64,000 nt of DNA, from NCBI GenBank assembly GCA_965250285.1, contig OZ252299.1, positions 2,912,001 to 2,976,000 on the forward strand, in the 5' to 3' direction. Both the position numbers and the translations under genes were made by a program. The DNA is from Myxococcota bacterium (GTDB taxonomy: Bacteria > Myxococcota_A > UBA9160 > UBA4427). Position 1 is the first letter of the stretch, and the number at the start of each line of letters is the position of its first letter. This document shows, one piece after another, positions 44,809 to 64,000 of this stretch. Below the pieces are notes generated by a model. The model searched no databases. It had not been told where the DNA came from and was given only the letters and a program-made list of their open reading frames with translations.

Positions 44809-44826
44809 TGTGCTTTATGAAGCACA
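44809..44826. promoter_or_regulatory. Palindromic operator candidate upstream of amtB
   Basis: TGTGCTT-TATG-AAGCACA; a putative promoter TTGACG (44864)-N17/18-(C)AATAA(A) lies downstream. Confidence 0.5.
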
Positions 44827-45007
44827 TCCGGTTGGTGGAGGCGCGCCTGGGCGCCTCCGCGCGTTGACGCGGTCGTCACAATCGCGCAATAAAGAGCCCA
44901 CTCGGGCGTCGCTTTGCGCGACGTCCTTCCGAATCCGTCGCCGGGCACCCGTCGACGCGCCCGCCTCACCTCGATGCCTGGCCCGGACCGCCAGGAGGAG
45001 CCCGTTC

Positions 45008-46333: not shown

Positions 46334-46355
46334 TCCCGCGCGCCGACCGCGAACC

Positions 46356-46394
46356 CGGGGCCCCGAGCAGCCGCTCGGGGCCCCGCTTCGTTTC
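46356..46394 (+). terminator. Intrinsic terminator-like hairpin after amtB
   Basis: 13-bp stem CGGGGCCCCGAGC-agcc-GCTCGGGGCCCCG followed by CTTCGTTTC. Confidence 0.7.
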
Positions 46395-46396
46395 GG

Positions 46397-46530
46397 GCCC
46401 TCAGACCGTGTCCGCGAATCGCACGCTTCGGGCCCTCAGATCGTGTCCGCGCATCGCACGCGCCGCGCCCTCAGATCGTGTCCGCGAATCGCACGCGCCG
46501 CGCCCTCAAACCGTGTACGCGAATCGGACG
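46397..46530. repeat. 35-bp tandem repeat, about 4 units, derived from the 3' end of the OsmC-like gene
   Basis: GCCCTCAGA(C/T)CGTGTCCGCG(A/C)ATCGCACGC units at 46397, 46432 and 46467; a diverged unit at 46502 is the gene's own last codons and stop. Confidence 0.85.
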
Positions 46531-46913
46531 TCGAGCTCGATGTCGGGGTGGATGCTCTGCTTGACCGGGCAGGCCCACGCGATCGCCTCGAGCGTTTCGC
46601 GTGTCTTCACGTCGAGGGCCGCCGGCAGGTCGAGCTCGACCACGAGCTTCACCACGCGGCGCGGTCCGGCGGCCATGTGCTTCTCGGTGCGCGCCCGCGT
46701 GCCGGCGAAGGGCCAGCCCTCGTCTTCGGCGCGGATGCCCATGGTCGTGACCATGCAGGAGGCCAGCGCCGTCGCGAGCAGATCGGTGGGCGAGAACGAC
46801 TCGCCGCGACCGCGATTGTCCACCGGTGCATCGGTATGGAGTCGAGTGCCCGACGGCGCGTGATCACACGCCGTGCGCAGCCCGCCCTCATACGTGGTGT
46901 GGATCTCGACCAT
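46506..46913 (-). CDS. OsmC/Ohr-family (YhfA-like) protein
   Basis: TDAPVDNRGRGESFSPTDLLATALASC...ACPVKQSI; GGGAG RBS. Confidence 0.88.
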   Translation of the reverse strand: MVEIHTTYEGGLRTACDHAPSGTRLHTDAPVDNRGRGESFSPTDLLATALASCMVTTMGIRAEDEGWPFAGTRARTEKHMAAGPRRVVKLVVELDLPAALDVKTRETLEAIAWACPVKQSIHPDIELDVRFAYTV

Positions 46914-47087
46914 CTGGCGTCTCCCTCTGTCGGTCCCGTTTGAAGGACGCGCGTCAACGCAGCGAGCGTCGCGCATCATGCCGTGAACCGCTGCGACGCA
47001 TCGGCCAGCGCAAGTCAACCGGGGCGCGCTGCAGGGGGACGGGGTACCGTGCAGCCACCTCGGTCCTTCTGGCTGGAGCCAGCCCGC

Positions 47088-49049: not shown

Positions 49050-49059
49050 ACCCGGCCCC

Positions 49060-49731
49060 ATGGCGCTGCCCTGGCAGACCCTCGACACGGCCGACACTCC
49101 CGACGGCCGCCTCGAGCTGCGGCAACGCGGCGACGACTTCCTGATCCTGATCGACGGCCGCGTCCTGATGAACAGCCGCCAGAACCGCAGCGAGATCGCG
49201 GTGGCCGAGCGGCCCTGTCGTGCGCTCGCCGACCATCCCGCTCCGCTGGTCCTGATCGGCGGACTCGGCATGGGTTGCACGCTGCGTGCGGCCCTCGATG
49301 CGTTGCCCGCGGCGGCGCAGGTGATCGTGGCGGAGCTGAACGAGGTCATCGTCGAGTGGTGCCGAGGCCCCCTCGCCCCCGTGCACGCAGGTGCGCTCGA
49401 CGATCCGCGCGTCCGCGTCGAGCTCACCGACGTCGCCGCGTTGATCCGCGCCCACGGCACGAAGGCAGCGCCCCGCTTCGACGCGATCGTGCTCGACCTC
49501 TACGAGGGGCCGCACGCCCAGACCGACGCCGTCGGCGATCCGCTCTACGGCCGGCGCGCCCTCGAGCGTACGCGCCGGGCGCTGCGGCCCGGTGGCTTCT
49601 TCTCGGTCTGGAGTGAGGCGGCCGACGCGGGCTTCGCCAAGCGCCTGCACGCGGCCGGGCTCGAGAGCGAAAGAGCCCGCCCCGGGAAGGGCGGGCTCCG
49701 TCACGTGGTCTACCTCGCGCGTCGGCGCTGA
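49060..49731 (+). CDS. Spermidine-synthase-like SAM-dependent methyltransferase
   Basis: LELRQRG..F.I..DGRVLMNSR, LIGGLGMGCTL, FDAIVLDLYEGP, VWS. Confidence 0.82.
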   Translation: MALPWQTLDTADTPDGRLELRQRGDDFLILIDGRVLMNSRQNRSEIAVAERPCRALADHPAPLVLIGGLGMGCTLRAALDALPAAAQVIVAELNEVIVEWCRGPLAPVHAGALDDPRVRVELTDVAALIRAHGTKAAPRFDAIVLDLYEGPHAQTDAVGDPLYGRRALERTRRALRPGGFFSVWSEAADAGFAKRLHAAGLESERARPGKGGLRHVVYLARRR

Positions 49732-49747
49732 GTCGATCTCACTCGAC

Positions 49748-51217
49748 TCAGTTCGCGGCGCCGCCCGCCGCCAGCAGCTTGACGCGGTGGTCGCCGAGCG
49801 CCGCGACCTCGGGGTGGCGCGTCTCGAGCGTCGCGAAGAAGTCGTACGAGTCGTACCAGTAGCCCCGCCGAGCGAGCTCGTGGCCTCGTTCGGCCAGGCC
49901 CACCTCGTCGATCGCATTCGTCTCGGCGTCGTTCGAGGCGAGGCGCTTGATCGAGCCTGCCGACACCGGGTTGCGCGACGGCCGGTCGGGATCGTTCACG
50001 AGCGTCACGAACCAGCGGTACTCGATGCCCGGCTCGAGCGACACGCCCTCGTCGGCGAGCGAGATCGATGCGAGGCCCGCGGCGTGCGGTCCGGCGAGGG
50101 TCAGCTCGAGCACCGGATCGATCTCGCGATCATCCACCACCGTCACCACGATCGCCTGCTCGGTCGGCTCGGACACGGACCACCAGAGTCGGGGCGAAGC
50201 CTCGCGGGTGAGACCCACATGGTCGGGTGCATGGGCCGTCACGCGCGGTGCCGAGCCATCGCCCCGCACGCCGCGCACCGAGCCGAACTGGTGCATCCAG
50301 GCCAGCTCCGTCGAACCAGAGGGCGCCGCGTAGTCGGGCGGGGCCATCTGCGAGAGCGAAGCGAGCAGGATCTCTTCGCCGGCCACGAGGTCGCCGGCGG
50401 GCGCCGCGTCGCGGGCCGACGGCTCTTCGTCGCGGTCGATGGCCGGCACCGCGGCGCCGCCCGGTCCGCCCTGTGCCTCGGCAAGCTGCACGACCTCGGG
50501 CTCGATCGACGGGGTCGGCGCCGGGGCCGGCGCCGCCGACTCGCTCAGCACGGGCTCGGGCACCGCCGCGCGATCCGCCGCCGCCAAACGCGACGGATCA
50601 CTCGGCGCCGGAACAGGCACCGGCTGCGGCGGGATGGCGCTCGGCTCGGGCTCGGCCGTCGGCGCCGACCGCTCGGCCAGTCGCTGCGGTGCGCGCGCGC
50701 CGCCCCCGCCCTCGCCGATCGTCACCCAGGTGCCGATCGCCGCGATCGCGACGAGCAGCGCGCCGGCCGCGGCCCAGCGCGGCGGTCGATCGAGACCGAG
50801 CCAGCCGGCGATGCGCTCGATGGCGCTCGGCGCCGCAGCCGCAGGGGCTTCGGCCGCCGCGCCCCAGGGCGCGCCGACCACCTCGGCGAAGTCGAAGGTC
50901 TGGAGGGCCTGCCACTCGGTCCGGCAGGTCGCGCACGCGTCGAGGTGTCGTTGCATCTTCATCTGCTCCGGCCCGGCCGTCGCGCCGCCGCCCGCGTAGC
51001 GGGCGAGCGCCTCGACGTCCGGGTGCCAGGGGCCGTCATCAGCCCCCTCTGCTTGCGAAGGCTCGGCGAGGGTCGACTCGATGCCGGTCCAGAGGGCCAG
51101 CTCGGCCGAGCACACCGCGCAGTCGGGATAGTGCGCGCGGAATGCCTCGAACTCGCTCGCCGACGGATCCGTCAGGTAGCGGGCCAGGTCGATCTCCTCA
51201 CGGAACCGGCAGATCAT
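49748..51217 (-). CDS. Anti-sigma factor with two zf-HC2 (ZAS) motifs, TM helix, Pro/Ala linker and C-terminal DUF928-like domain
   Basis: HYPDCAVC and HLDACATC (HxxxCxxC); TM WAAAGALLVAIAAIGTWV; APDHVGLT..SPRLWW, LEPGIEYRWFV, ARRGYWYD (DUF928-like); GAGGAGG RBS; directly downstream of the ECF sigma gene. Confidence 0.8.
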   Translation of the reverse strand: MICRFREEIDLARYLTDPSASEFEAFRAHYPDCAVCSAELALWTGIESTLAEPSQAEGADDGPWHPDVEALARYAGGGATAGPEQMKMQRHLDACATCRTEWQALQTFDFAEVVGAPWGAAAEAPAAAAPSAIERIAGWLGLDRPPRWAAAGALLVAIAAIGTWVTIGEGGGGARAPQRLAERSAPTAEPEPSAIPPQPVPVPAPSDPSRLAAADRAAVPEPVLSESAAPAPAPTPSIEPEVVQLAEAQGGPGGAAVPAIDRDEEPSARDAAPAGDLVAGEEILLASLSQMAPPDYAAPSGSTELAWMHQFGSVRGVRGDGSAPRVTAHAPDHVGLTREASPRLWWSVSEPTEQAIVVTVVDDREIDPVLELTLAGPHAAGLASISLADEGVSLEPGIEYRWFVTLVNDPDRPSRNPVSAGSIKRLASNDAETNAIDEVGLAERGHELARRGYWYDSYDFFATLETRHPEVAALGDHRVKLLAAGGAAN

Positions 51218-51264
51218 CTCACCCTGCCTCCTCGCTCGCCGAAGCCCCTGCCTCGGCGTTCACA

Positions 51265-51298
51265 GGATGGATCGCTGAAGCCCCTGAAATCGGATCAC
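51265..51298 (-). promoter_or_regulatory. Conserved 34-bp motif, copy 1 (putative ECF promoter), upstream of the anti-sigma gene
   Basis: Minus strand GTGATCCGATT-tcaggggct-TCA-g-CGATCCATCC; same motif and spacing as 54362-54395. Confidence 0.7.
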
Positions 51299-51360
51299 CC
51301 GCCGAGCCCATTTCTCCACGGTTCGACCATTTTGCTGCTCTCGTCGCCCTCAGTGCGCGC

Positions 51361-51939
51361 TCAGCCATCCGCCAGCTCCGCGCGCAGGGCCGCGAGCCCC
51401 TCCCGCAGCGCGCGCTTGAGGGTGCCGAGCGGCAGCCGGGTCTGCTCGGCGGCCTCTTCATAGGTGCGGCCGCGCATGTAGACCTCGACGACGGCCTCGC
51501 GTGCGCGGTCGGGCAAGCGCTCGAGCGCCTCCCAGAGCGCCACCTGGTGATCGGCCGACAGGCCCCCTTCGCCACCGGGCGGCCAGGGCGAGGCCCCCTG
51601 CTCGGTCAGCTCTTGGGCATCGTGGTCGGGGGCCTGGCGCTCGAGCGCGCGCAGCCGGTCGACGAACTTGAAGCGGGCCGTCTGCTTGAGAAAGCCCGCG
51701 ACGGCGCCCGCGTTCTCGAGGCGGCCGTCGCGGTGGGCTTCGCAGACGGCGAGGACGACGTCCTGCACCATGTCGTCCCAGTCGTCGCGAAAGTCGAAGG
51801 CCCTCCAGCGCGACAGAAAGCCGGTGACGAAGCGCGCGAGGGTCACGAACGCGACGCGGTCGCCCTGCCGCACCCGACCGACGACGGCGTGCCAATCGGT
51901 CCTCGCCCCTCTGGCGCTCGTCTGGGTCGGCTCGGACAC
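51361..51939 (-). CDS. ECF RNA polymerase sigma factor
   Basis: Region 2 GDRVAF...DDMVQDVVLAV...RFKFVDRLR; region 4 LPDRAREAVVEVYMRGRTYEEAAEQTRLPLGTLKRALREG; TAGCCT -10 six nt before the GTG. Confidence 0.9.
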   Translation of the reverse strand: MSEPTQTSARGARTDWHAVVGRVRQGDRVAFVTLARFVTGFLSRWRAFDFRDDWDDMVQDVVLAVCEAHRDGRLENAGAVAGFLKQTARFKFVDRLRALERQAPDHDAQELTEQGASPWPPGGEGGLSADHQVALWEALERLPDRAREAVVEVYMRGRTYEEAAEQTRLPLGTLKRALREGLAALRAELADG

Positions 51940-52041
51940 CCGCGAAGGCTAACCGACCCGGGTCACGAGAATCGAGTGGCCGCGGCGCCTTCGGGGTCGG
52001 GGCACCCGCAGACGGCCGCGACCGCGTATTCTCGGTGGCCG

Positions 52042-54279
52042 ATGGCCGACCCCAATCAAGAAGAGCACGACGCGCCCAGCGAGAGCTGGATCGCCGAGTT
52101 TCGCCGGCGCACGGTCTTCCGGGTCACGGCGGCGTACGTGGTCGTCGCCTGGGTGCTCATGCAGGGCGCCGAGATCGTCTTTCCGGCCTTCGAGCTCTCG
52201 AACGCGGCGCTGCGGCTCTTGATTCTGGTCCTGGCGGGCGGGCTGCCGATCGCCGTGATCCTCGCGTGGCTGCTCGAGGTCACCCCGACCGGGGTGCGGC
52301 TGACCAACCGTCTGCGTGCGGGCGGCGCGACCGGTGAAGGGCGCGAGCAGACGACGGCCTTCGGGCGCGTCATCGAGATCGTCGTGCTCGGGGCGTGCAT
52401 CCCGGCCATCGCGTTCGTCGCCGTCCTGCTGATGTCGACGCCGATCGACCTGACGGACGCGTCCGACGAAGCCACGCAAGCCGAGGGAGCGACCCCGGGG
52501 TTTGCGCCGATCGAGGGCCGGAGCCTCGCGGTGCTGCCGTTCGAGGATCTGACCGCGACGCCCGAGGGTTCGGGCTTCTTCGCCCGCGGCGTGCACGAGG
52601 ATCTGCTGACCCGGGTCGCTGGCCTGCCCGACCTGCGCGTGGTCGCGCGCACGACGGTACTCGCCTACCTCGACCGCCCCGATGGCCTGCAGGCGATGAC
52701 CCGCGAGCTCGGCATCGCGCACGTGCTGCAGGGCAGCATCCGCCGCAGTCCATCGCTGATCCGGGTGACGGCCCAGCTGACCGGCACCGAGACCGGCGAG
52801 CTCGTGTGGGCCGAGACGTTCGAGGCCGAGCCCGAAGACGTGCTGCGCGTGCAGGCCGACCTCGCCGCTCGCATCGGTCGCGCCCTCGAGGACGAGCTGT
52901 CGGGCGAGGGCTCGAGCGGCGGCGAGATCCCGGTTGCGGTCGTGACGTCGCCGATCGTCGACGAGGCGTCTGCGCCCCGGCGCGTCGTGCCGGCGGCGTT
53001 CGACGCCTACCTCGAAGCGCGCGACCTGCACCGCAGCCTCGATGCCGAGAACCGCGAAGACCTCGCCCGCGCCCGCGCACTCTACGAGACGGCGGTGCGC
53101 CTCGACCCCGAGCTCGGCGCGGCCTGGGCGCAGCTCGGCATCCTGCACGCCGAGGCCGACTGGTTCGGCTTCGACCGCAGCGGGGCCCGCTGCGACCGCG
53201 CGCGCGAAGCCATCGAACGCGCGGGCGCGGTCGAGCCGGGTCTCGACCTGCTGCCCCTCGCAGCCGGCATCGAGGCGTACTACTGCGACGGCGACTTCGA
53301 GCGCGCCGAGGTGCTCTTCGCAGAGGCCGCCGAAGCGATGCCCGGCGACACCCAGGCGCTCTTCTACCGCGCCATGGTGCTGCGCCGCCTCGGTCGTCTA
53401 GAAGAGGCGCTGGCGCTTCAGCGCCGGGCGCTCGCGATCGACCCGCTCAACCTGGGCGAGCGCGACGAGCTGCCGCTCACGCTGGCGTTCCTCGGCCGGC
53501 TCGAGGAGGCGCGCCGCGAGACCGACGTGTTGCTCTCGCTCGATCCCGACCGGATCCGCGCGCGCTTCTACGGCTGGCACCTCGACCTCGAGCTCGACGG
53601 CCGGCCCGAGATCGTGCTCGACGAGATCCTCGCGGCCCCCCGCTCGCAGTTCGGCTTTCAGCACCTCGGCCTGCTCGAGCGCGTGGCCGTGCTCGCCGAC
53701 CGGCCCGACGACGCGATTGCGCTGATCGAGTCGCTGCCCGAGGACGCACCCGACCCGGGCTTTCGAGACTTTCGCCTGGCGCGGCTGCAGGGCTGGGCGG
53801 GGCGGGCCGACGAGCGGGCCCGTCTGCTCGCCCGGTCGCGGGCGAAGTGGGATGCGATCGTCGCCGCCGTCGGCGACGCGCTCAGCCCGACCGAGCGCAA
53901 CGTGGCCGAGGCGCTGTTGGCGGCGGCCGAGGGCGACCTGCCCCGCGCGATCGTGCTGCAGGGCGAGATCGTCGAGGCCCAGCCGATCGAGGTCGACCTG
54001 ATCACGGGCAGCCCGCCCCTCGCGCAGCTGATCCACTTCAACGTACTCGCCGGTCGCACCGGCGAGGCCGAGGCCCTGCTCGACCGCCTCGAGGCGCGCG
54101 GCGCGTTCGGCGCCGTGCTCTTTCACGGCTGGTACCACCTGCTGCACTGGCCCGGCTATACCCCGGCGCTGCAGGATCCGGCCTTCCGGTCGGCCCTCGA
54201 GCGCCGGCTGCCGCCCTACGTCGAGCGCTGGCTCTCGGAGCGCGCCGGCGGCGGCGCCCAGATCCCGGTCGCCTCCTGA
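52042..54279 (+). CDS. Membrane protein with 3 N-terminal TMs, TolB-like/FlgO-like domain and TPR repeats
   Basis: EFRRRTVFRVTAAYVVVAW, SLAVLPFEDL, VVARTTV, VLQGSIRR, LVWAETF, then multiple TPRs (LAIDPLN). Confidence 0.82.
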   Translation: MADPNQEEHDAPSESWIAEFRRRTVFRVTAAYVVVAWVLMQGAEIVFPAFELSNAALRLLILVLAGGLPIAVILAWLLEVTPTGVRLTNRLRAGGATGEGREQTTAFGRVIEIVVLGACIPAIAFVAVLLMSTPIDLTDASDEATQAEGATPGFAPIEGRSLAVLPFEDLTATPEGSGFFARGVHEDLLTRVAGLPDLRVVARTTVLAYLDRPDGLQAMTRELGIAHVLQGSIRRSPSLIRVTAQLTGTETGELVWAETFEAEPEDVLRVQADLAARIGRALEDELSGEGSSGGEIPVAVVTSPIVDEASAPRRVVPAAFDAYLEARDLHRSLDAENREDLARARALYETAVRLDPELGAAWAQLGILHAEADWFGFDRSGARCDRAREAIERAGAVEPGLDLLPLAAGIEAYYCDGDFERAEVLFAEAAEAMPGDTQALFYRAMVLRRLGRLEEALALQRRALAIDPLNLGERDELPLTLAFLGRLEEARRETDVLLSLDPDRIRARFYGWHLDLELDGRPEIVLDEILAAPRSQFGFQHLGLLERVAVLADRPDDAIALIESLPEDAPDPGFRDFRLARLQGWAGRADERARLLARSRAKWDAIVAAVGDALSPTERNVAEALLAAAEGDLPRAIVLQGEIVEAQPIEVDLITGSPPLAQLIHFNVLAGRTGEAEALLDRLEARGAFGAVLFHGWYHLLHWPGYTPALQDPAFRSALERRLPPYVERWLSERAGGGAQIPVAS

Positions 54280-54361
54280 GCCGATCCGCGCGGGACGGAC
54301 ACCCCGGAACCCCTCGGAAAATCTCGATTATTACGAATCACTCGAAAATCTTTTTGTTTTC

Positions 54362-54395
54362 GTGATCCGATTGGCCGCCCGTCACCGATCCATCC
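54362..54395 (+). promoter_or_regulatory. Conserved 34-bp motif, copy 2 (putative ECF promoter), preceded by an AT-rich UP-like tract
   Basis: GTGATCCGATT-ggccgcccg-TCA-c-CGATCCATCC; AT-rich 54317-54360; AAGGAGGAGG RBS follows. Confidence 0.7.
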
Positions 54396-54413
54396 CACGA
54401 AGGAGGAGGTGAC

Positions 54414-54887
54414 ATGCTCTACCGATTCGAGACTTTCGAGGTGGCCGAACAGACGCGCGAGCTGCGCTGCCAGGGCCAACAGGTGCACTGCCAGCCCAAG
54501 GTGTTCGACCTGCTCGTGCTGCTTCTTCAGCAGCGCCACCGCGTGGTGTCGCGCGAGATGATCCTGCGCGAGATCTGGCCGAGCGTATGCGTCTCGGGCG
54601 CGTCGGTGAATCGCCTGGTCAAGGAGACACGCCGCACCCTGGGCTCGGCCTGTGACCCGAACGGCCACATCCAGACCAGCCGCGGCCGCGGCTACCGGTT
54701 CGTGGGACACGTCGAGTGCGTGCGTGAGGCCGGCGAAGCCAGCGAAGAGGACGCCATCGTCGCCCGCGCGCGCCGCGCGCTCGAGGCCTCGATGGAAGAG
54801 GGCTTCCAGGATTTCAAGCTGCGCCTCGACGAGTTCGTGTCGACCTGCCACCTCGCGATCGAGGCGGCGCGGAGCCAGGCGCAGTGA
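54414..54887 (+). CDS. Stand-alone OmpR/CadC-type winged-helix DNA-binding protein
   Basis: YRFETFEV...RELR..G, PKVFDLLVLL...RVVSRE...IW, IQTSRGRGYRF; no receiver or TM domain. Confidence 0.85.
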   Translation: MLYRFETFEVAEQTRELRCQGQQVHCQPKVFDLLVLLLQQRHRVVSREMILREIWPSVCVSGASVNRLVKETRRTLGSACDPNGHIQTSRGRGYRFVGHVECVREAGEASEEDAIVARARRALEASMEEGFQDFKLRLDEFVSTCHLAIEAARSQAQ

Positions 54888-55277
54888 CTGCCGCCTTCGA
54901 CGACACGCCGCGCCTGCGGACGAAGCTCACGCGCGTCGGGCGACCCGACGGTGCTCTTGGCCGCCCGGTTGCGTGTGGGTTGCCGGTGGATCGAAGACCG
55001 AGCGCAGATCGGATCGCCGCCGGCGCGACACCGACGCGCAGCCCCGAGGCCGCCCCGACGAACACGAAATGGCACGAGGTCAGCTTCGCATCACGAAAAG
55101 ACGCACAGCGAGCCCAATCAAGTGACCCAACCCATCCCTGACAGCGGATCGTCGTGCACGTCGAATTCGCGAACGCGACGCTGGCCGCTTCCGGTATGCT
55201 GGCCCGAACCCCAGCCGCGTCGGCACCCCGGGATTCATCCGGCCGCAAACCCGAGTCGACGCGACCACGAGAAGCGC

Positions 55278-58121
55278 ATGTGCCACCGAAGCCCCCGCCT
55301 CGAGTTCCGAATCGCGCTGTGCGTGATCAGCTGGCTGTGCGCAGCCGGCCTGGCGAGCGCGACCGAGCCCGTCGTCTTTCACAGCCCGACCGATGATGGC
55401 GCCGGCGCTCCGGGCTTCGTCCTCACCGCCCCGAATGCGACGCTCAACCTCTGGCTTCGCCCCGGCGACGTGCCCAGCGAGTCGAGCCAGATCGTCTGCG
55501 TCAACGGCAACGGTGACGAGATCTGCGGTTTCGACCTCGTGCTTCTCGCGAGCGGCAGCTTTCGGTTGAGCTCGTTCGAGCCCGACTCGGAGAACGACGT
55601 GGTCGCGGGCCCCGTTTCAGCGACTGATCTACGGCTGAATCGCGTTGCCGGCCTGAACCCCGACTCGGCGCCCGTGCGCATCGGGACGCTCAGCGTCTTT
55701 CGCTTGAGTGATGACCCCGGTGAGCTCCGCGTCTCGCCCGAGAGCCTGGCGGTCGATGCGTCGGGGGAGCTCATCTCGATCTCGGACGAAGAGGCGATCG
55801 CCCTGCCCGAGCCGTCCGGCGCTCTGGGTCTCGTTGCGGGCGCGTGCACGCTGGTCGCGCTCAGGCGTCGACGGCAGCGCGCGACGATGCTGCTGCTGGC
55901 GCTCGTGTCCCTGCTCTTCGTCCCGACGGGCGCCAACGCCGACTCGACGAGCTTCGAGACCGGGTACGCCGAAGGCGATCTCGTCACCACGGTCGACTTC
56001 CCGACCAATCGGGTTCGGATCCAGGGCCAGGGCCAGATCCGGATCGGTGAGATCGGGCTGCCGACCGTGGCCTTCGAGCCCAACGACACGCATCAATTCG
56101 CCGACCCCTTGAATCAGCGGTTCTTCATCTACGACACCACGGGTCAGACGACCGGCGGGCCTCGGGACGGCTACGTCTTCGAGTTCGAGAAGCCGGTCGA
56201 GTCGTTCGGCATCGTTCTGCTCGACTTCAACCAGGAGGCAGGCCCCCCGGCCGTGCCGCTCGGGGCCACCGCGCGGATGCGGGCGTATGGTGACTATGCC
56301 CGCACCCAGCTGCTGAGCGAGCAGACCGCCACGACGAACTCGAGTCAGCCCGACGGCAGCGCGTTCATCTATCCGGCGGCGCCGGTGACGTCCGAGATTC
56401 GCGCTGTCACCCTCGAGTTCGATCAGAGCGAAACCACCACCGGCATCTCGGGCATGATCTTCGAGACGGTCACCGACACCGACTTCGACGGCGTCTTCGA
56501 TCCGTTCGACAATTGCCCCGACTTCTACAACCCGCAGCAGGAGGACGGCGACGGCGACGACGTCGGCGACTTCTGCGACAACTGCCGCTACACCTCGAAC
56601 CCGGCGCAGACCGACACCGACCAGGACGGCGAGGGAGACCTCTGCCAGCCCGCGACGATCATCGGTGAGGTGCAAGGCGACCAGAGCGGCCCCAAGCAGT
56701 TCCAGGTGTTCCTGCAGTGCAACGCGCGGCCGATCCGCACGATGTCGTTCGGCGTGCTCGTGCCCTTCGGCTCGAGCGTCGAAGAGAGCGGCGTGCTCTT
56801 CGGCGACTGCGGCCTGCCCCCGAACCCGCCGCCGGGCGTGCCCGCCGGCGGCGGCTGTACCGGCACCCTCGGCCCCACGGTTTCGCCGGGCGATTCGGGC
56901 GTCTGGTCGTCGAACGTCGGCGTCGGCCCGCCGTGGCACCAACGCGCGGTCTACCTCACCGTCAGCGGCACGGGCAAGGAAGGCGCGCTCTGCGAGCCCT
57001 TCGAAGGGCCGGTGCCGATCGCACAGTTCTTCTACGAGTTCGACGTCAACTTCGAGGGCCAGTCGGGCTTCGTGGTCGACGGCTTCGCCGACCAGGGCGA
57101 GCCGGTTCTCGAGACGATCGAGGGTGAGCCGTCCGAGTACGAAACGGTGTCGTACTTCATCGTCTCCGATCCGGTCCCCCCGCCGCAGCTCGAGCTGCTG
57201 CTGCAGCCGGCAGCCGGGGAGCCCGCCGGCTTCGAGACGCGCTGGAACCTCTGCATGTCGAGCGACCTGGGCAACCTGATGAAGCGGGTCAGCGTGGGGG
57301 TGCACGTCGAAGACTCGACCATCAACGACATTCGCGTGATCGGCTGCGACACGCCGGACGTCGGCGAGTTCAAGCGTGAGTGCACCAGCACCGTGGGGCC
57401 GCACGTCGACTTCTCGAAGTCGTTCACCCAGGGGCCGTTTCCGAGCGACATGGCACCGCTCGGCGCGGACACGCTCTACATCGCGCTCGAGGGTTCGACG
57501 CCGACGTTCGACGGCCCGACGCTCAACCCCTCGCCCACCGCCGAGACGTGTGTCGCGACGATCGAGATCGATATCCCGCCCGGCGCGGAGGGGGTGCAGC
57601 CGACGCTCGTCAACGCGGGGGTCGACACGCTCCCGTTCGACGATGGCGAGGCCGAGGGCTACCTGCGCTCGACCCTGAGCCCCACGCCCGACCCGATCTC
57701 ACTGTTCGAGGTCTATCTGGCCAATGGGCTCGACGTCGGCGAGGACTACGACAACGACGGCCACCTCGATTCGGCCGACAACTGCGTCTTCCGCGCGAAC
57801 GACCTGCAGAACAACGGCGATTTCATGAGCGCCACGCCGAACTTCGACGACGACGGCGACGCCTGCGAATGCTCCGACACGAACGGCACGGGAGCGATCT
57901 TCGACGAGAGCACCCCCGACCCGGTGACGGGCGCTCCCTCCGACCTCGCGAAGATGCGAGACTATCTGGCGGGTCGCGATCTGAGCGAGAACATCGCCCA
58001 GACGTGCAGCGTCGCGGGGAGTCCCGAATGCGACATTCAAGATGCCGTCGTGCTGCAGCGCGCGCTGGCGGGCGCACTGCCGGGGATCGAGACGCGCTGT
58101 GATGCTGCGCTCCCCGACTGA
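55278..58121 (+). CDS. Exported acidic surface protein with internal PEP-CTERM-like motif, second signal peptide, thrombospondin type-3 repeats and dockerin-like C-terminus
   Basis: Signal peptide to ASA; LPEPSGALGLVAGACTLVALRRRRQR at aa 176-201; DTDFDGVFDPFDNCP..NPQQEDGDGDDVGDFCD repeats; CDIQDAVVLQRAL. Confidence 0.8.
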   Translation: MCHRSPRLEFRIALCVISWLCAAGLASATEPVVFHSPTDDGAGAPGFVLTAPNATLNLWLRPGDVPSESSQIVCVNGNGDEICGFDLVLLASGSFRLSSFEPDSENDVVAGPVSATDLRLNRVAGLNPDSAPVRIGTLSVFRLSDDPGELRVSPESLAVDASGELISISDEEAIALPEPSGALGLVAGACTLVALRRRRQRATMLLLALVSLLFVPTGANADSTSFETGYAEGDLVTTVDFPTNRVRIQGQGQIRIGEIGLPTVAFEPNDTHQFADPLNQRFFIYDTTGQTTGGPRDGYVFEFEKPVESFGIVLLDFNQEAGPPAVPLGATARMRAYGDYARTQLLSEQTATTNSSQPDGSAFIYPAAPVTSEIRAVTLEFDQSETTTGISGMIFETVTDTDFDGVFDPFDNCPDFYNPQQEDGDGDDVGDFCDNCRYTSNPAQTDTDQDGEGDLCQPATIIGEVQGDQSGPKQFQVFLQCNARPIRTMSFGVLVPFGSSVEESGVLFGDCGLPPNPPPGVPAGGGCTGTLGPTVSPGDSGVWSSNVGVGPPWHQRAVYLTVSGTGKEGALCEPFEGPVPIAQFFYEFDVNFEGQSGFVVDGFADQGEPVLETIEGEPSEYETVSYFIVSDPVPPPQLELLLQPAAGEPAGFETRWNLCMSSDLGNLMKRVSVGVHVEDSTINDIRVIGCDTPDVGEFKRECTSTVGPHVDFSKSFTQGPFPSDMAPLGADTLYIALEGSTPTFDGPTLNPSPTAETCVATIEIDIPPGAEGVQPTLVNAGVDTLPFDDGEAEGYLRSTLSPTPDPISLFEVYLANGLDVGEDYDNDGHLDSADNCVFRANDLQNNGDFMSATPNFDDDGDACECSDTNGTGAIFDESTPDPVTGAPSDLAKMRDYLAGRDLSENIAQTCSVAGSPECDIQDAVVLQRALAGALPGIETRCDAALPD

Positions 58122-58133
58122 GTCGGTCGCCAC

Positions 58134-60806
58134 ATGAAGCAGTGGGCGGTGCTCGTCGGAGCACTGTGCGGATCGCTCGCGCTGCTGGGCCCACAGGCCG
58201 AGCTCGCCCGGGCCGACGTCGTCTTCGACGGAACGCTCGGGGCCCCCGGACCCGCGCCGACGCGCCCGCTCGACGGGCGCACCGACTTCATGATCGAGCA
58301 GAGCCGCGGCCTGCGCATCGCGTCGGGCGGCCGGGCGAACCTGTTCCACAGCTTCTCGACGTTCGACCTCGCCGCCGATCAGAGCGCGAGCTTCATGGCG
58401 ACCGACCCGGTCGACACGATCCTCGCTCGCGTGACGGGCGGCGACCCGACGACCATCGCCGGCCTGATCCGATCCGAGGTGCCCGGCGCCGATCTGTTCC
58501 TGATCAATCCGATGGGCATCACGCTCACCGAGACGGCGTCGCTCGATCTGCCCGCCTCGTTCATCGCCACCTCGGCCGACTTCATCGAGCTCGACGACGG
58601 CAGCGTCTTCCCCTCGACCGCGACCGTGCCGACCGTGACCGCCGCGGCGCCGAGCGCGTTCGGGTTTCTCGGCGGCGACGTCGCGGGAGCCCTCGTCATC
58701 GAGGGCGAACGCGCGCTGACGCTCGAGCGCGGCTCGACGTTCGCGCTGGTCGGCGGCGATGTGGGCGTGCGGGACGGATCTCGGGTGTTTGCGAGTGGCG
58801 GTCGCATCGACGTGGCCGCGGTGGGGAGCGCGGCCGTGGTCGTGCCCCTGAACGTGGGCGACTGGCATCCGCGGGCCGACGGCACGGCCGGGCTCGGCGA
58901 GGTGCGCGTCGATGGCTTCGAGGCCGAGCTGCACGCCTTCGACCTCGCCAACCCCAGCTCGAATCAGGGGCAGATCGTGGTCCGGGGCGGGGTCTTCGTC
59001 CTCGAGACGAGCTTTCTCCGGGCAGGAGGCGATGGCCCGGCCACGACCGCGATCGACATCGAGACCACCACCGGCGTCGAGGTCGACAACGCCGGGGTCC
59101 AGACCTTCGGCGCCGGCGCGGCCGGCGTCGGCGGCATCCGCGTCGACACCGACACGCTCTCGGTGTCGCAGGGATCGGTCTCGGGCATCGCGAGCCGCAA
59201 CGTCGGCACGGGCGCCGCCGGTCCCATCGAGATCACGGCGGGTCGCGTCGAAGTCCGCGCCGCCGGCCAGATCCAGAGCGATGCCGACGGCCCCGGGGAC
59301 GGCGCGCCCATCGTGATTCTGGCCGACGTGATCGAGCTCGATGGCGGCGCCGCGATCCAGACCGACACGACGAACGCCGGCCGGAGCGGCAGCGTCACGA
59401 TCGTCGCCGATCAGATCATCGCGACCGACCTGAGCGAGATCTCGAGCCGCACCGACGGGCTGGGCTTCGTCGGCAACGATGCGGGCGACGTCTCGATCAC
59501 CGCGCGGACGATGGAGCTGCGCTCCGGTGCGCGCGTCTCGGGCACGACGGACGGCAGCGGACGCGGCGCAGACATCGATCTCGACATCGAGGAGAGCCTG
59601 CTGCTCGATGGCGACTTCGTGATCGGCGGAGGCCCGGTGCTGCCGTCGGGCGTGTTTGCGCGCTCGGGCGTCGACGCCGGATCACCTGCGACCGGGGACG
59701 GCGGCGACGTGACCATCGACGCCGGTACGATGACGATCTCGAACGGCGCGCAGATCGCCGCGAGCCCGCGCGGTGAGGGCAACGCCGGCGCGATCACGAT
59801 CACGGTCGACGACACGTTCCAGATCTTCGGCGAGGGCCAGCTCCAATCGGGCGTCTTTGCGCAGGCCGTCGAGGGCGATGGCGGCGCGATCACCGTGACC
59901 GCGGACACGCTGTTGCTGAACGACGGCGCGCGCATCGAGTCGGCCGCGCTCTCGACGGGCAACGCGGGCGACATCACGCTCGTCGGCGAGACCATCGTCC
60001 TCGACGGCGACGTGCAGGTGAACGCGCGGTCCGAGTTCGAGGGTGCGGCCGGCGACGTCACGCTCCGGGGCGACACGATCCGAGTCGCCAACGGCGCGCG
60101 GATCCTGTCACTGACCGAAGCAGATGGCGCGGCCGGCAACATCAACTTCGAACAGGGCGACGTCGTCCTGGAGAGCGGCGCGACGGTCGACGCCGAGTCG
60201 CTCGGGACGCAGCCGGCCGGCAACGTCAGCTTCAACGCGGCGTCGGTGCGCATCGGCGACGCGGCGCGGGTGTCGACGCAGTCGGTGGTCAGCCAGGGCG
60301 GCAACGTCGACGTCGACGTGAGCGGGACCTTCGCCGTCGATCCCGGCGGCGTGGTCATCACCGACGTGCGCGGCCCCACCGGCGGCGGCGGAGACGTCAT
60401 CGTGCGCGCCGAGTCGGTCGTGATCAACGATGCCACCGTGACGGCGAACGCCAACGCCGTCGACGCCGAGGCCGGCAACCTCTTCTTCCAGGTGCGCGGC
60501 GGCTATTTCGAGTCGACGAACGCGACGGTCACGGCGAACAACCCGCAGGGCGTCGACGGCACGGTGGTCATCGATGGTCCGGTCGACCAGGTCGTCGGCG
60601 ACCTCGTCTCGCTCGACGGCGACTTCTCGGACGCCTCGGACCAGCTCGAGACACCCTGCGTCGCCCGAGGTAGCGCGAGCGGCAGCTTCTCGGTGCAGCG
60701 CGAGCGCGCGCCGCCGCCCCCACCCGACCAGCACCTCGACCCGGCCGCGCCGTCGAGCGGCCCCGAGTTCGACCCGGGTCAGGGCCGCTGCGAGACCGCG
60801 CGATGA
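58134..60806 (+). CDS. TpsA / filamentous-haemagglutinin-family exoprotein
   Basis: Signal peptide; TPS domain NLFHSF...ARVTGG...LFLINPMGI; G(N/D)(A/G)G.I.I beta-helix repeats; C-terminal PC...GSF motif. Confidence 0.9.
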   Translation: MKQWAVLVGALCGSLALLGPQAELARADVVFDGTLGAPGPAPTRPLDGRTDFMIEQSRGLRIASGGRANLFHSFSTFDLAADQSASFMATDPVDTILARVTGGDPTTIAGLIRSEVPGADLFLINPMGITLTETASLDLPASFIATSADFIELDDGSVFPSTATVPTVTAAAPSAFGFLGGDVAGALVIEGERALTLERGSTFALVGGDVGVRDGSRVFASGGRIDVAAVGSAAVVVPLNVGDWHPRADGTAGLGEVRVDGFEAELHAFDLANPSSNQGQIVVRGGVFVLETSFLRAGGDGPATTAIDIETTTGVEVDNAGVQTFGAGAAGVGGIRVDTDTLSVSQGSVSGIASRNVGTGAAGPIEITAGRVEVRAAGQIQSDADGPGDGAPIVILADVIELDGGAAIQTDTTNAGRSGSVTIVADQIIATDLSEISSRTDGLGFVGNDAGDVSITARTMELRSGARVSGTTDGSGRGADIDLDIEESLLLDGDFVIGGGPVLPSGVFARSGVDAGSPATGDGGDVTIDAGTMTISNGAQIAASPRGEGNAGAITITVDDTFQIFGEGQLQSGVFAQAVEGDGGAITVTADTLLLNDGARIESAALSTGNAGDITLVGETIVLDGDVQVNARSEFEGAAGDVTLRGDTIRVANGARILSLTEADGAAGNINFEQGDVVLESGATVDAESLGTQPAGNVSFNAASVRIGDAARVSTQSVVSQGGNVDVDVSGTFAVDPGGVVITDVRGPTGGGGDVIVRAESVVINDATVTANANAVDAEAGNLFFQVRGGYFESTNATVTANNPQGVDGTVVIDGPVDQVVGDLVSLDGDFSDASDQLETPCVARGSASGSFSVQRERAPPPPPDQHLDPAAPSSGPEFDPGQGRCETAR

Positions 60807-62506
60807 GCGCGCATCGCCTCACCCGATGCTCGGCCGGATGGGCGGCGATCGCGCTGCTCGTGCTCGCCCCGTCGCCGGCGTCGGCGCAGGATCTGGGCGT
60901 CGATCCGGGCGAGGTCCGCCCCACCCTGCCCGCGCCGCAGGCGCCGGGCGAGACCGACCTCACCCTGCCCCCCCTCGAACAGGGGCCCGTCGATCGGCCG
61001 GGCGAGCTCGCCGTGCCCATCGAGCGCGTCGTCGTCACCGGGAGCACGGTCTTCAGCGACGCCGAGATCGCCCGCGCGCTCGAGCCCTTCGTCGGCCGCC
61101 CGATGACGTCGGCCGATCTCACCGCGGCGCGCGATGCGCTCACCCACCTCTATGTCGATCACGGCTACGTGACCTCGGGCGCCGTCGTGCCCGATCAGCA
61201 GATCACCGCCGGCACGCTCACCCTTCACGTCATCGAAGGCGCCGTGAGTGAGATCGAGATCGAAGGCAACGACCGCATCCGCGATGCGTACCTTGCGCCC
61301 AGGCTGCGCGCGGCGACCCGCGCACCGGTGCAGCTCGGTCGCGTGCGCGAGACGCTTCGAAGACTGCAGAACAATCGCTACATCGAACGGATCGATGCAC
61401 ACCTCGAGCCGGGCGCACGACGCGGCGAGAGCAGACTCGTCGTCACGGTGCACGAAGCGGCTCAGTGGGCGCTCGCCCTCGAAGTCGCGAATGACCGGTC
61501 GCCCACCGTCGGCAGCACCGGCATCGCGGGCGACGGGACGATCGCGAACGTGATCGGCGTCAACGACGTCTGGCGGCTGCGCGTGCAGGCGACGCGGGGT
61601 GTCCTCGACATCGACGCGCGCTTCGAGGTTCCGATCACGCGGTTCGACACGATCTTTCGCTTCGAGCTGCGAGATACACACATCGAAGTCGTCGAAGACC
61701 CGTTCGACGTGCTCGACATCGAAGCCGAGGGCCGTCGCTACGGCCTCTCGATCTTCCATCCGCTCCTCCGCCGAGGCGATCACTCGCTGTGGCTCCAGCT
61801 GACGGGTGAGTACGAGCAGCAATCGTCGACGGTGCTCGGCCTGCCCTTCTGCTTCGAGCTCTTCCTCGAAGACTGCGACGAGCCGACCATCGCCGCGCTG
61901 CGCGGGGGGCTGCAGTACACGTGGACCACACAGCGCAACGTCGTCTCGGCCCGCGCGCTGTTCTCGGGCGGGCTGCCGATCCTCGGCGCAACGACCGGCG
62001 TGCCAAAAGATCGCCCCGATGGCCAGTTCTTCGTCTGGCTCGGACAGACCCAGTGGGCCCACGTGCTCCCCGACGCCGCTCTGCGCTCGACGCTCCTGCT
62101 TCGCGGTGACCTGCAGCTCGCCAACGATGCGCTGCTCGGCCTCGAGAAGATCGCGATCGGGGGGCGCCGCACCGTGCGGGGCCACCGAGAGAACCAGCTG
62201 GTTCGCGACAACGGCGCCGTGTTGTCGGGCGAGGTCCGCGTGCCCGTCTGGCGCACCTCGCTCGATCGACCCGTGCTCGAGCTCGTGCCGTTCATCGACT
62301 GGGGCTATGCGTGGAACAACGGCATCGACCCGCCGCAGAATCAGCTCTGGAGCATCGGCGCGGGGTTCCGCTTCATGCCGTGGAAGGGGACGCTCGGCGA
62401 GTTCTACTGGGGCAGCCACATCGACACGAAGCGTGACCGAAAGACGGACCTGCAGGATTACGGGATCTCGTTCAGGGTGAGGATCGATGCGCCTGAAGTG
62501 TTCTAG
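60803..62506 (+). CDS. TpsB (ShlB/FhaC/HecB) outer-membrane transporter
   Basis: POTRA VTGSTVFS...YVDHGYVTSGA..PDQ...VIEG; TVRGHREN (VRGY-like loop 6); C-terminal Phe; ATGA overlap with tpsA. Confidence 0.92.
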   Translation: MSAHRLTRCSAGWAAIALLVLAPSPASAQDLGVDPGEVRPTLPAPQAPGETDLTLPPLEQGPVDRPGELAVPIERVVVTGSTVFSDAEIARALEPFVGRPMTSADLTAARDALTHLYVDHGYVTSGAVVPDQQITAGTLTLHVIEGAVSEIEIEGNDRIRDAYLAPRLRAATRAPVQLGRVRETLRRLQNNRYIERIDAHLEPGARRGESRLVVTVHEAAQWALALEVANDRSPTVGSTGIAGDGTIANVIGVNDVWRLRVQATRGVLDIDARFEVPITRFDTIFRFELRDTHIEVVEDPFDVLDIEAEGRRYGLSIFHPLLRRGDHSLWLQLTGEYEQQSSTVLGLPFCFELFLEDCDEPTIAALRGGLQYTWTTQRNVVSARALFSGGLPILGATTGVPKDRPDGQFFVWLGQTQWAHVLPDAALRSTLLLRGDLQLANDALLGLEKIAIGGRRTVRGHRENQLVRDNGAVLSGEVRVPVWRTSLDRPVLELVPFIDWGYAWNNGIDPPQNQLWSIGAGFRFMPWKGTLGEFYWGSHIDTKRDRKTDLQDYGISFRVRIDAPEVF

Positions 62507-64000
62507 CTGCGCCTTGGCCACGACCGGCGCGTTGGCGTTCCTGCTGGGAGCGGCCGGCGGCGCGTACGCCCAGGACGCGGCCGCGACCGATGCCGAAGTC
62601 GCGATCGAACGCAGCGAGCGCACGGCGGCCCCGGCCGAACCGGATTCGGCAGCGGCACGCACCGCGCTCTACGACGAAGCCAACGCGGTGCGAGACCGCA
62701 TCGAAGCGAACCAGGTCGAGGGCGCGCAGGCGACGCTCGGAGCGCTCGCCGAACGCATCGACACCCTCGCCCGCCTGAGCGACCGAGCCCACGTCGCGAT
62801 CCATCTCGGCCGCAGCGAGATCGAGCTCGGCGATCGCCAGCCAGCCGCCGCGCGCGATCAGAGCCGCCTGCGCGCAGCCCGCCTCTTCGCCCGCGCCGCG
62901 GCCGACGCCGAAGAGTGTGACGATGCCCGCCTCGCCGCCTATGCCTGGGGCTACCTCGCCGAACCCTATCTCGACGCGGGGCGGATGGGCGACGCCCGCG
63001 TCGCCACCGAGCGGGCCATCGAGTACGCCGCCCTCGCGGCCGCCCCGGATGCCGAGTACCGATTTCTCGCTCAGCTGGGGGCGATCTTTCGCCGCGAGGG
63101 CGACCTCGACGCCGCGATCGCGGCCGACCGGCGCGCGGTCGCCATCGTGGCGCGGCTGAGCGAAGACCTCGCGTCCGACTCGTTGGCCGCTTCGTTTGCC
63201 TTCCGCGAGCAGGTCGAGCCGGTGTACACGTCGCTCGTCGACGCCCTGCTCGCGCGCGCGGCCCAGTCGACGCCCGAGACGGCGCAGCCGCTGCTGCGCG
63301 AAGCGCGCGACACGCTCGAAGCGCTGAAGACGGCCGAGCTGCGCGATCACTACGGCGACGACTGCCTGGCTTCGCAGCAGCGCGTCGCGACCGACGATCT
63401 GCCCGGGGCGGTCGTGCTCTACCCGGTGATCCTCCCCGACCGGGTCGAGCTGATCGTCGGGGCGGACGGCGTGCTGAGCCTGCACCGATCGCCGATGCCG
63501 CCCGACGCGCTCGACGCACAGGTGGGCCAGATGCGCCGCTTCGTCGCCTCGGCCATGACCCGCCGCTACCTGCGACCGGCGGCGGCGCTCTACGCCGGGC
63601 TGATCGCCCCCATTGCCGACCGACTCGACGACGCCGACGTGCTCGTGGTCGTGCCCGGTGGCGCGCTGCGGACGATCCCCTTCAGCGCGCTCTACGACGA
63701 AGCCCGCTCGGCGCACTTGATCGAGGACATCGCGGTCGTCACGAGCCCGGGGCTCTCGCTCACCGAGCCGCGCCCCTTCAGCGGCAAGGACACGCCGGTG
63801 CTCGCGGCCGGGCTCAGCGAGGCGCGCCTCGGCTTCAGCGCCCTTCCGAGCGTCGACACCGAGATCGAAGGCATCGCGGCGAGCTTCCCGACCACCGAGC
63901 TGATGAACAGCGCGCTCACCGGCGAGCGGCTCGACGGTGAGGTGGCGAGCCAGGCCGTGGGGGTCGTGCACATCGCGACCCACGCCGAGTTCGACGCCGA
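62487..64000 (+). CDS. Exported TPR + CHAT (caspase HetF associated with TPR) protease, 3' truncated by the window
   Basis: Own translation from ATG 62487 (GAGGA RBS): signal peptide to AYA-Q, TPR-like helices, FREQVEPVY, ALKTAELRDHYGDDC, LYPVILPDR, VVPGGALRTIPFSALYD, VVHIATHAEF (catalytic His). Not in the ORF track because there is no stop in the window. Confidence 0.88.
   Translation, partial: MRLKCSSCALATTGALAFLLGAAGGAYAQDAAATDAEVAIERSERTAAPAEPDSAAARTALYDEANAVRDRIEANQVEGAQATLGALAERIDTLARLSDRAHVAIHLGRSEIELGDRQPAAARDQSRLRAARLFARAAADAEECDDARLAAYAWGYLAEPYLDAGRMGDARVATERAIEYAALAAAPDAEYRFLAQLGAIFRREGDLDAAIAADRRAVAIVARLSEDLASDSLAASFAFREQVEPVYTSLVDALLARAAQSTPETAQPLLREARDTLEALKTAELRDHYGDDCLASQQRVATDDLPGAVVLYPVILPDRVELIVGADGVLSLHRSPMPPDALDAQVGQMRRFVASAMTRRYLRPAAALYAGLIAPIADRLDDADVLVVVPGGALRTIPFSALYDEARSAHLIEDIAVVTSPGLSLTEPRPFSGKDTPVLAAGLSEARLGFSALPSVDTEIEGIAASFPTTELMNSALTGERLDGEVASQAVGVVHIATHAEFDA

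Follow-up and report, generated by a model that had tools for sequence, protein, structure and literature searches.

The window analysed was a stretch of 64,000 nucleotides (nt) from a Myxococcota bacterium (assembly GCA_965250285.1, contig OZ252299.1, positions 2,912,001 to 2,976,000 of the forward strand), the genome of which is assembled as one contig of 6.25 Mb and is 95% complete. The 3' end of the window carries an envelope signalling cassette that is real, conserved and apparently undescribed: genes for a sigma factor of the extracytoplasmic function (ECF) type, an anti-sigma-like membrane protein ending in a DUF928 domain, a two-partner secretion (TPS) pair (TpsA and TpsB) and an exported CHAT protease with tetratricopeptide repeats (TPR-CHAT). 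Gene content, an intact catalytic dyad, conserved linkage, TpsA-CHAT fusions, an arginine motif and a promoter motif were established directly. All genes listed by a sequence-only reading of this DNA were found in their places (Table 1), among them the sigma, the DUF928 anti-sigma, the winged helix-turn-helix (wHTH) protein and the run surface protein-tpsA-tpsB-CHAT, whose junctions are a 12-nt gap, a 4-nt overlap and a 20-nt overlap. The CHAT gene extends 388 nt beyond the window, to 64388, and is followed by CoA transferase and NMO genes rather than by the CHASE2 gene that had been looked for there; at the completeness given, CHASE2 was not found anywhere in the genome. A contig of run X1 covered positions 49000-64000 without difference and may be the source of the assembly.

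Table 1. Features of the cassette and its neighbours, in window coordinates (TM, transmembrane; aa, amino acids)
Feature	Position	Strand	Basis
Anti-sigma-like membrane protein, 489 aa: two HxxxCxxC motifs, TM helix, Pro/Ala-rich linker, Arg motif, DUF928	49748..51217	-	Pfam, alignment, hydropathy, model, fold match
Arg315 codon (FGSVR-G), predicted P1 residue of CHAT cut	50273..50275	-	alignments; model loop
ECF-type bipartite promoter motif GTGATCCGATT-N12-GCGATCCATCC, 5' of anti-sigma gene	51265..51298	-	pattern/matrix scans
ECF sigma factor, 192 aa, regions 2 and 4	51361..51939	-	domain models
-10-like hexamer TAGCCT, six bases 5' of sigma start codon	51946..51951	-	similar hexamers here in many relatives
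Three-TM/TPR membrane protein, 745 aa, accessory	52042..54279	+	Pfam, hydropathy, linkage counts
Promoter motif, second copy, GTGATCCGATT-N12-CCGATCCATCC, 5' of wHTH gene	54362..54395	+	pattern/matrix scans
Stand-alone winged-helix (Trans_reg_C) protein, 157 aa, accessory, likely sigma target	54414..54887	+	Pfam, linkage, motif
Surface protein, thrombospondin type 3 repeats and internal PEP-CTERM-like segment, 947 aa, variable partner	55278..58121	+	Pfam
TpsA, 890 aa: signal peptide, TPS domain, conserved C-terminal tail (D833, L838, C842), second terminal Cys	58134..60806	+	Pfam, alignment
TpsB, 567 aa, POTRA and ShlB barrel	60803..62506	+	Pfam
TPR-CHAT protease with signal peptide, 633 aa	62487..64388 (window ends at 64000)	+	Pfam, alignment, fold matches
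His499 of CHAT (Cys546 codon just past window end)	63981..63983	+	sequence

Core genes and their linkage in relatives

The sigma protein matched TIGR02937 with 47.1 bits (cut-off 42.9) and Sigma70_r4_2 with 39.6 bits; the region 2 model scored 19.7 bits, under its cut-off of 24. Regions 2 and 4 only were found in this short protein, as in group IV (ECF) sigma factors. The anti-sigma gene lies downstream of the sigma gene, and its product has an N-terminal HxxxCxxC motif and a single TM helix at 149-167 (hydropathy), the layout of a single-pass zinc-binding anti-sigma (ZAS); it is predicted to inhibit the sigma. The zinc motifs H29/C33/C36 and H91/C95/C98, with H65, were kept in 25 aligned homologues. 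The ZAS label given earlier stood in its motifs and helix and not in its Pfam model, zf-HC2 scoring 14.4 bits against a cut-off of 22.2. The extracytoplasmic domain proved to be DUF928, as had been proposed (aa 315-484; 81.5 bits, cut-off 26).

TpsA (TPS domain, 93 bits, after a signal peptide) and the adjoining TpsB (POTRA_2 and ShlB) form a type Vb pair. The CHAT domain scored 184 bits and holds the motifs HIATH and LSACET with an intact His499/Cys546 dyad; the catalytic Cys that had been sought beyond the window edge is therefore present, and so is the signal-peptide-like N terminus claimed earlier. A hydrophobic signal-like N-terminal stretch was found in nearly all free CHAT proteins of this kind. 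H499, C546, E459 and D580 were present in 62/62 CHAT domains of these loci; we take D580 to be the counterpart of the Arg-binding Asp of separase. Searching the PDB with the protein sequence gave no match, and searching with alignments gave only TPR matches and one weak TPR-CHAT match (7zoq, E 0.19). Fold comparison of the predicted CHAT model placed Csx29 on top, with DdvA and separase also matched. Proteolysis and a P1 preference would be expected by analogy with HetF and separase.

Linkage was assessed in 80 fetched stretches, mostly long reading frames with a set of short ones (L170, without DUF928, was dropped), annotated with profiles built for this analysis and spot-checked with Pfam; a class-wide DUF928 search covered 225 genomes, its figures resting on 150 of 174 matches. 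The anti-sigma form was found at 49 loci in 42 genomes, and the homologues with source names are from Myxococcota. A sigma gene lay directly upstream in 47/49. At least one of TpsA, TpsB and CHAT was in the fetched stretch at 39/49 loci, which bears out the earlier expectation of synteny with TPS/CHAT, and all three were at 21/49. Where at least 8 kb was available on each side (n = 23), at least one of the three was found in 19, CHAT in 18 and all three in 13. Gene order and strand varied freely. The zinc-motif profile was unmatched by an anti-sigma variant in 14/49 loci; this subtype, without zinc ligands and still with sigma, TM helix and Arg motif, was seen at L106, L112-L114, L119, L125, L128, L129, L134, L137, L138, L140, L142 and L154. 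Among the 225 class genomes, whose kin are not independent, the CHAT subfamily was found in 83, DUF928 in at least 95, both in at least 75 and neither in 122 among the matches listed; CHAT occurred without DUF928 in 8 of them on the same matches (75/83 CHAT genomes have DUF928).

The genome itself has one DUF928 gene, three CHAT genes and four TPS domains. Only 1/13 sigma-like reading-frame matches lies within 12 kb of a CHAT gene, the other 12 being at least 72 kb away, which argues that the proximity of sigma and CHAT exceeds chance. No PADLOC cas match was obtained among the 11 locus proteins scanned, no CRISPR or CBASS genes were found at the locus, and the nearest and single cas1 gene of the genome is about 270 kb off, in keeping with the proposed independence from CRISPR.

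Other genes of the window are looser partners. The protein at 52042-54279, earlier called TolB-like with TPR, kept the second half of that label (TPR matches and three hydrophobic segments); the first was dropped after no TolB-type model matched. Because this TPR membrane protein was linked in only 7/49 anti-sigma loci and the wHTH gene in 2/49, both are accessory and outside the core. The thrombospondin type 3 (TSP3) surface protein was found in 19/49. In the window the PEP-CTERM-like TM segment of this protein spans about aa 177-200, and another stretch resembling a signal peptide comes after it, which gives the impression of two exported proteins fused into one; six exosortase matches were found in the genome.

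DUF928, the TpsA tail and the promoter motif

In the literature DUF928 appears in a cyanobacterial WD40/CHASE2 cluster. The modelled domain is a predicted immunoglobulin (Ig)-like sandwich with TPR-like helices, and its best fold match was the C-domain of MtxA (PDB 4z29; Z 9.3, root-mean-square deviation 4.1, 145 aligned residues, 14% identity), the next match having Z 6.7. Free DUF928 proteins with a signal peptide were examined at 30 loci: an adenylate/guanylate cyclase domain was encoded directly upstream in 26, CHASE2 was in the stretch in 27, and a sigma of the cassette type was in none (0/30). CHASE2 was likewise absent from the fetched stretches of all anti-sigma loci (0/49), and the locus in the window is not a CHASE2-linked DUF928 cluster. 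TpsA, TpsB or CHAT was near the free DUF928 in 13/30. Nitrospira loci have the order tpsA-tpsB-CHAT-DUF928-DUF928; DUF928 on Nostoc plasmids either has CHAT and haemagglutinin genes in its vicinity or comes immediately after a CHASE2 gene, and both the TpsA tail and the CHAT of Nostoc matched the profiles built here. Since the free form follows a CHASE2-cyclase and the fused form follows a sigma, DUF928 appears to be a shared receiver with swappable outputs, the anti-sigma fusion replacing the CHASE2 receptor. In a quick tree of 121 DUF928 cores the fused/free label changed 4 times, at least 2 of the changes being forced by well-supported branches, and the fusion may have arisen repeatedly.

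Two arrangements were noted beside these. In the Nitrospira loci L049-L064, TonB-receptor-like and response-regulator-like genes (by eye) follow the tpsA-tpsB-CHAT-DUF928 pairs with no CHASE2 or sigma match, a possible third output. At L168:7471-10350, a single open frame covers CHASE2, cyclase and DUF928, the last two being separated by a signal-peptide-like stretch; this is either a fusion or the result of a lost stop codon.

Just before the Ig domain stands Arg315, usually after small residues and mostly before G/S/A, with a spacer to the domain that varies by insertions. Of the anti-sigma sequences 52/53 kept it, and of the remaining DUF928 sequences, some of them truncated anti-sigmas, 101/104 did; two Nostoc DUF928 proteins outside the alignments also have the motif. 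In the anti-sigma model the loop 316-320 had low confidence and residues 291-310 good confidence, as if packed on the domain. The CHAT protease HetF cuts PatU3 at R117-S118 (PMC9457339), and separase cleaves after Arg (PMC11506125). Because Arg315 is near-invariant, lies in a seemingly flexible loop and has these precedents, it fits an Arg-cutting CHAT, and a cut at Arg315-Gly316 is specifically predicted. In the proteins P0028-P0035, P0042 and P0093 the DUF928 domain occurs twice, with an Arg motif ahead of each repeat.

Among 58 TPS reading frames, a pattern selected 23 distinct TpsA tails with a common motif around Cys842. A second Cys lay further on in 21/23 of these free tails; R845 was found in 16/23, and no Arg was invariant. 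In 7/7 complete TpsA-CHAT fusions observed, including one from the genome studied here, the tail stood directly before TPR-CHAT. In HMW1 and HxuA a disulfide anchor keeps TpsA's C-terminal end within the periplasm (PMC5422565). The TpsA tail would then be expected to meet CHAT in the periplasm, either as gate or as substrate.

Upstream regions of the cassette share a bipartite motif, TGATCCGATT, about 13 bases, then CGA(C/T). A tight pattern, drawn from some of these same sites, gave 10 matches in 858 kb of anti-sigma loci vs 1 in 572 kb of free-DUF928 loci. With a matrix built from seven sites not 5' of an anti-sigma gene, 26/57 anti-sigma upstream windows scored at least 10 vs 0/114 controls. 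The two copies in the window, before the anti-sigma and wHTH genes, are identical at 21/22 specified positions; no further site in the genome was closer than two mismatches. A wider regulon was not found in the genome (3 two-mismatch sites vs 2.1 expected), a loose form of the pattern was not enriched (6.2 vs 6.1 per 100 kb), and an unguided spaced word-pair search of all non-coding DNA gave nothing clear. A sigma-70 consensus scan returned 0 sites, with the TAGCCT hexamer unscored; this hexamer is likely, from its position, a leaderless housekeeping promoter of the sigma gene. The cassette sigma is predicted to read the bipartite motif. The motif positions and the -10-like hexamer are compatible with constitutive expression of the sigma, resupply of the anti-sigma under the sigma's own control, and a regulon of small size. 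One of the two-mismatch copies, within chance expectation, was at G000:C1:2157309 (+) before two exported beta-barrel-like reading frames.

Proposed mechanism and alternatives

That the core genes are functionally linked is very probable. The full mechanism put forward here, to which we assign a probability of about 0.5, is a trans-envelope proteolytic switch in which CHAT cuts the anti-sigma and the sigma is released. TpsA would be held in TpsB with its tail in the periplasm, and the tail would control the exported TPR-CHAT protease. An outside cue, which we guess to be contact-dependent pull or loss of TpsA, would activate CHAT to cut the anti-sigma after Arg315 and take off the DUF928 ectodomain. 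RseP, the gene for which is present in the genome, would then cleave the TM remnant, as in known ECF pathways, and the freed sigma would transcribe the anti-sigma gene (feedback) and the wHTH and surface-protein genes. In other bacteria the signal would go from free DUF928 to a CHASE2 receptor-cyclase instead. Much of this wiring had been proposed in the sequence-only reading; the Arg315 candidate and the tail-CHAT fusions fit it, and core status for the TPR membrane protein and wHTH regulator does not survive the linkage counts. A broader extension is held more tentatively, at somewhat less than even odds: TpsA-TpsB-CHAT-DUF928 may be a widespread and undescribed sensory pathway, with a secreted filament as antenna, a protease gated by the periplasmic tail and one cut after the conserved Arg of DUF928 as the shared signal, wired to an ECF sigma or a CHASE2 enzyme from Myxococcota to Nitrospira and cyanobacteria.

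Several observations weigh against the switch. Four of the 23 well-flanked anti-sigma loci lacked TPS/CHAT within about 10 kb (L117, L122, L124, L128), as did 17/30 free-DUF928 loci, and 20 of 95 DUF928 genomes lacked a CHAT match among the matches listed, many of these assemblies being incomplete. Two further TpsA-TpsB-CHAT units in the genome have neither DUF928 nor sigma beside them and no promoter motif; a TPS-CHAT unit can therefore stand without a local receiver, so that either action in trans is needed or the link is weaker. A P1 Arg is no rule of the CHAT family, because Craspase CHATs cleave after Met or Leu (PMC11506125), and a conserved Arg can be a docking residue. The wider search, which found the Arg pattern in 137/151 domains (86% at 6-13 residues vs 14% in shuffles), used a profile that includes the Arg motif and is partly circular. 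In many relatives, though not in the window, the TGA of the promoter motif doubles as the stop codon of the sigma gene, so that the first three letters of the motif are inflated. Lastly, the motif in relatives often precedes the surface-protein gene adjoining tpsA, which plain transcriptional control of the unit would also fit.

CHAT might instead cut the TpsA tail, as LapG cuts CdrA (PMC5422565), and release TpsA; DUF928 would bind either this released tail or the protease while it is occupied, the first anti-sigma cut being left to a housekeeping protease. The placement of the tail directly before TPR-CHAT in every fusion seen accords with this, as do the Ig and TPR fold of DUF928, which suits binding (MtxA C-domain as best match), and the CHAT units of the genome without a neighbouring DUF928. 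We consider it unlikely, however, as the tail lacks an invariant Arg, which DUF928 has, and the Gly-rich Arg loop would be left unexplained.

The flow could also run the other way: the sigma would turn on surface-protein and TPS genes, CHAT would mature secreted proteins, and DUF928 would sense an unrelated cue. Six tight motif matches before TSP3 surface-protein genes (L109, L111, L113 twice, L133 and L146), the copy before the wHTH gene in the window and the sigma pairs without nearby TPS/CHAT are consistent with this order. However, free DUF928 without a sigma adjoins TPS/CHAT in this class, Nitrospira and Nostoc, which makes the CHAT-DUF928 link independent of the sigma, and tpsA genes often have their own TAGAAT-type -10; reverse flow is accordingly rated improbable.

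Slightly less probable again is a role of the Arg motif in docking or as a pseudo-substrate, in which CHAT and DUF928 would bind without a cut and signal across the membrane by a change of conformation. The confidently modelled, packed-looking residues 291-310 would suit docking, and free DUF928 has no membrane anchor to be cut from; against this, the dyad is invariant, and a small residue after the Arg is what is expected of a scissile bond. A chance neighbourhood of unrelated envelope genes, which the rarely linked TPR membrane protein and wHTH gene would allow, is very improbable and for the core genes is contradicted by their linkage in shuffled order across 42 genomes, with fusions.

If the proteolytic switch is correct, the uncharacterised DUF928 (its profile matched 7,164 clusters at 50% identity) would gain a function, as would a large exported CHAT protease subfamily; two-partner secretion would be seen to serve inward signalling, and ECF pathways would acquire a new site-1 protease. 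Given the predicted cut site, the catalytic residues and the promoter, the claim can be tested with four genes, and Nostoc and Nitrospira offer cultured hosts.

Related systems and neighbouring loci

The closest precedent is DdvA/DdvS of Myxococcus xanthus, of the same phylum (PMC11506125), which the sequence-only reading did not include. There an ECF sigma is held by a single-pass zinc anti-sigma, and a periplasmic TPR-CHAT is the proposed site-1 protease before RseP; in DdvA, however, the TPR-CHAT is the anti-sigma's own ectodomain, with ZAS, TM and TPR-CHAT in one chain, and self-cleavage is proposed only, whereas here CHAT is a separate exported protein encoded with a TPS pair and the ectodomain is DUF928. 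In Craspase (Csx29/Csx30/CASP-sigma, PMC10028731) and CalpL/CalpT/CalpS (bioRxiv 2023.06.23.546230) the anti-sigma is likewise a protein apart from the TPR-CHAT, which cuts it and so frees an ECF sigma that has targets at its own locus, and Csx29 is the top fold match of the CHAT model. Those systems act in the cytoplasm and respond to target RNA or cyclic oligoadenylate, unlike the present signal peptides, TM anti-sigma and secretion pair, and type III-E Craspase has cas genes at its locus. The cassette would work like DdvS/DdvA or Csx29/Csx30/CASP-sigma and is a member of neither, having a separate exported CHAT, a DUF928 ectodomain and no cas genes.

HetF/PatU3 of Anabaena (PMC9457339) is likewise a bacterial CHAT that has a single substrate and cleaves it between an Arg and a small residue, but that substrate is a division inhibitor, and the available part of the paper describes no sigma or TPS pair. 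HMW1/HxuA-type TpsA proteins and CdrA/LapG (PMC5422565) share the cysteine-bearing tail and a periplasmic protease at a TPS system; there the protease frees an adhesin on a cytoplasmic cue, with no inward sigma signal in what is available of the source. MtxA of magnetotactic bacteria (PMC4439547, PDB 4z29) resembles DUF928 as an exported Ig-like and TPR-like domain encoded beside a CHASE2-adenylate cyclase (mtxA first, then the cyclase). It differs in its low identity (see above), its function is unknown, its deletion was without phenotype, and CHAT and TPS are not mentioned in the part available.

In ECF54 (PMC7826278, PMC8999054) and in EACC2-caspase systems (PMC8195603), ECF sigma genes lie beside CHAT or caspase genes and proteolytic control was proposed from context. 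ECF54 is described without an anti-sigma and with subtilase or carboxypeptidase partners, whereas here an anti-sigma-like gene follows the sigma gene, and no carboxypeptidase-like or subtilase domains were found in the Pfam scan of the locus proteins. The EACC2 systems use DUF1822 with an EACC2 domain; two-partner, POTRA and hemagglutinin are not mentioned in the available part of PMC8195603, nor is DUF928 in the examined part of the ECF supplement PMC7826278. The wiring was not described in the open literature found; subscription journals and part of the ECF classification supplement were outside that scope, so a description under an ECF group could be missed.

Further TPS genes of the genome were arranged as follows. 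At G000:C1:451279-475000 (L004, L005) a TpsA-TPR-CHAT fusion gene is accompanied by a divergent TpsB gene and a very long reading frame for a surface protein with TSP3 repeats; neither DUF928 nor a sigma adjoins. The third unit, at G000:C1:856017-867432 (L006), consists of CHAT, TpsB, a TSP3/FGE-sulfatase surface protein and TpsA, and adjoins a long Rhs-like-looking reading frame and PEP-CTERM-like genes (both read by eye). The TpsA at G000:C1:1005536-1016136 (L008) is the fourth; it is much longer, has a TpsB but no CHAT beside it, gave a weak TPS match and is probably of another kind.

The flank at 44810-49731 of the window encodes an ammonium transporter, an OsmC-like protein (by eye), a RecQ helicase and a spermidine-synthase-like methyltransferase. 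At L124 (G121:C47) the sigma, anti-sigma and wHTH genes lie beside amt-, osmC- and recQ-like genes (by eye), as in the window, but without TPS/CHAT; this layout suggests a TPS-CHAT unit that is gained and lost or that works in trans.

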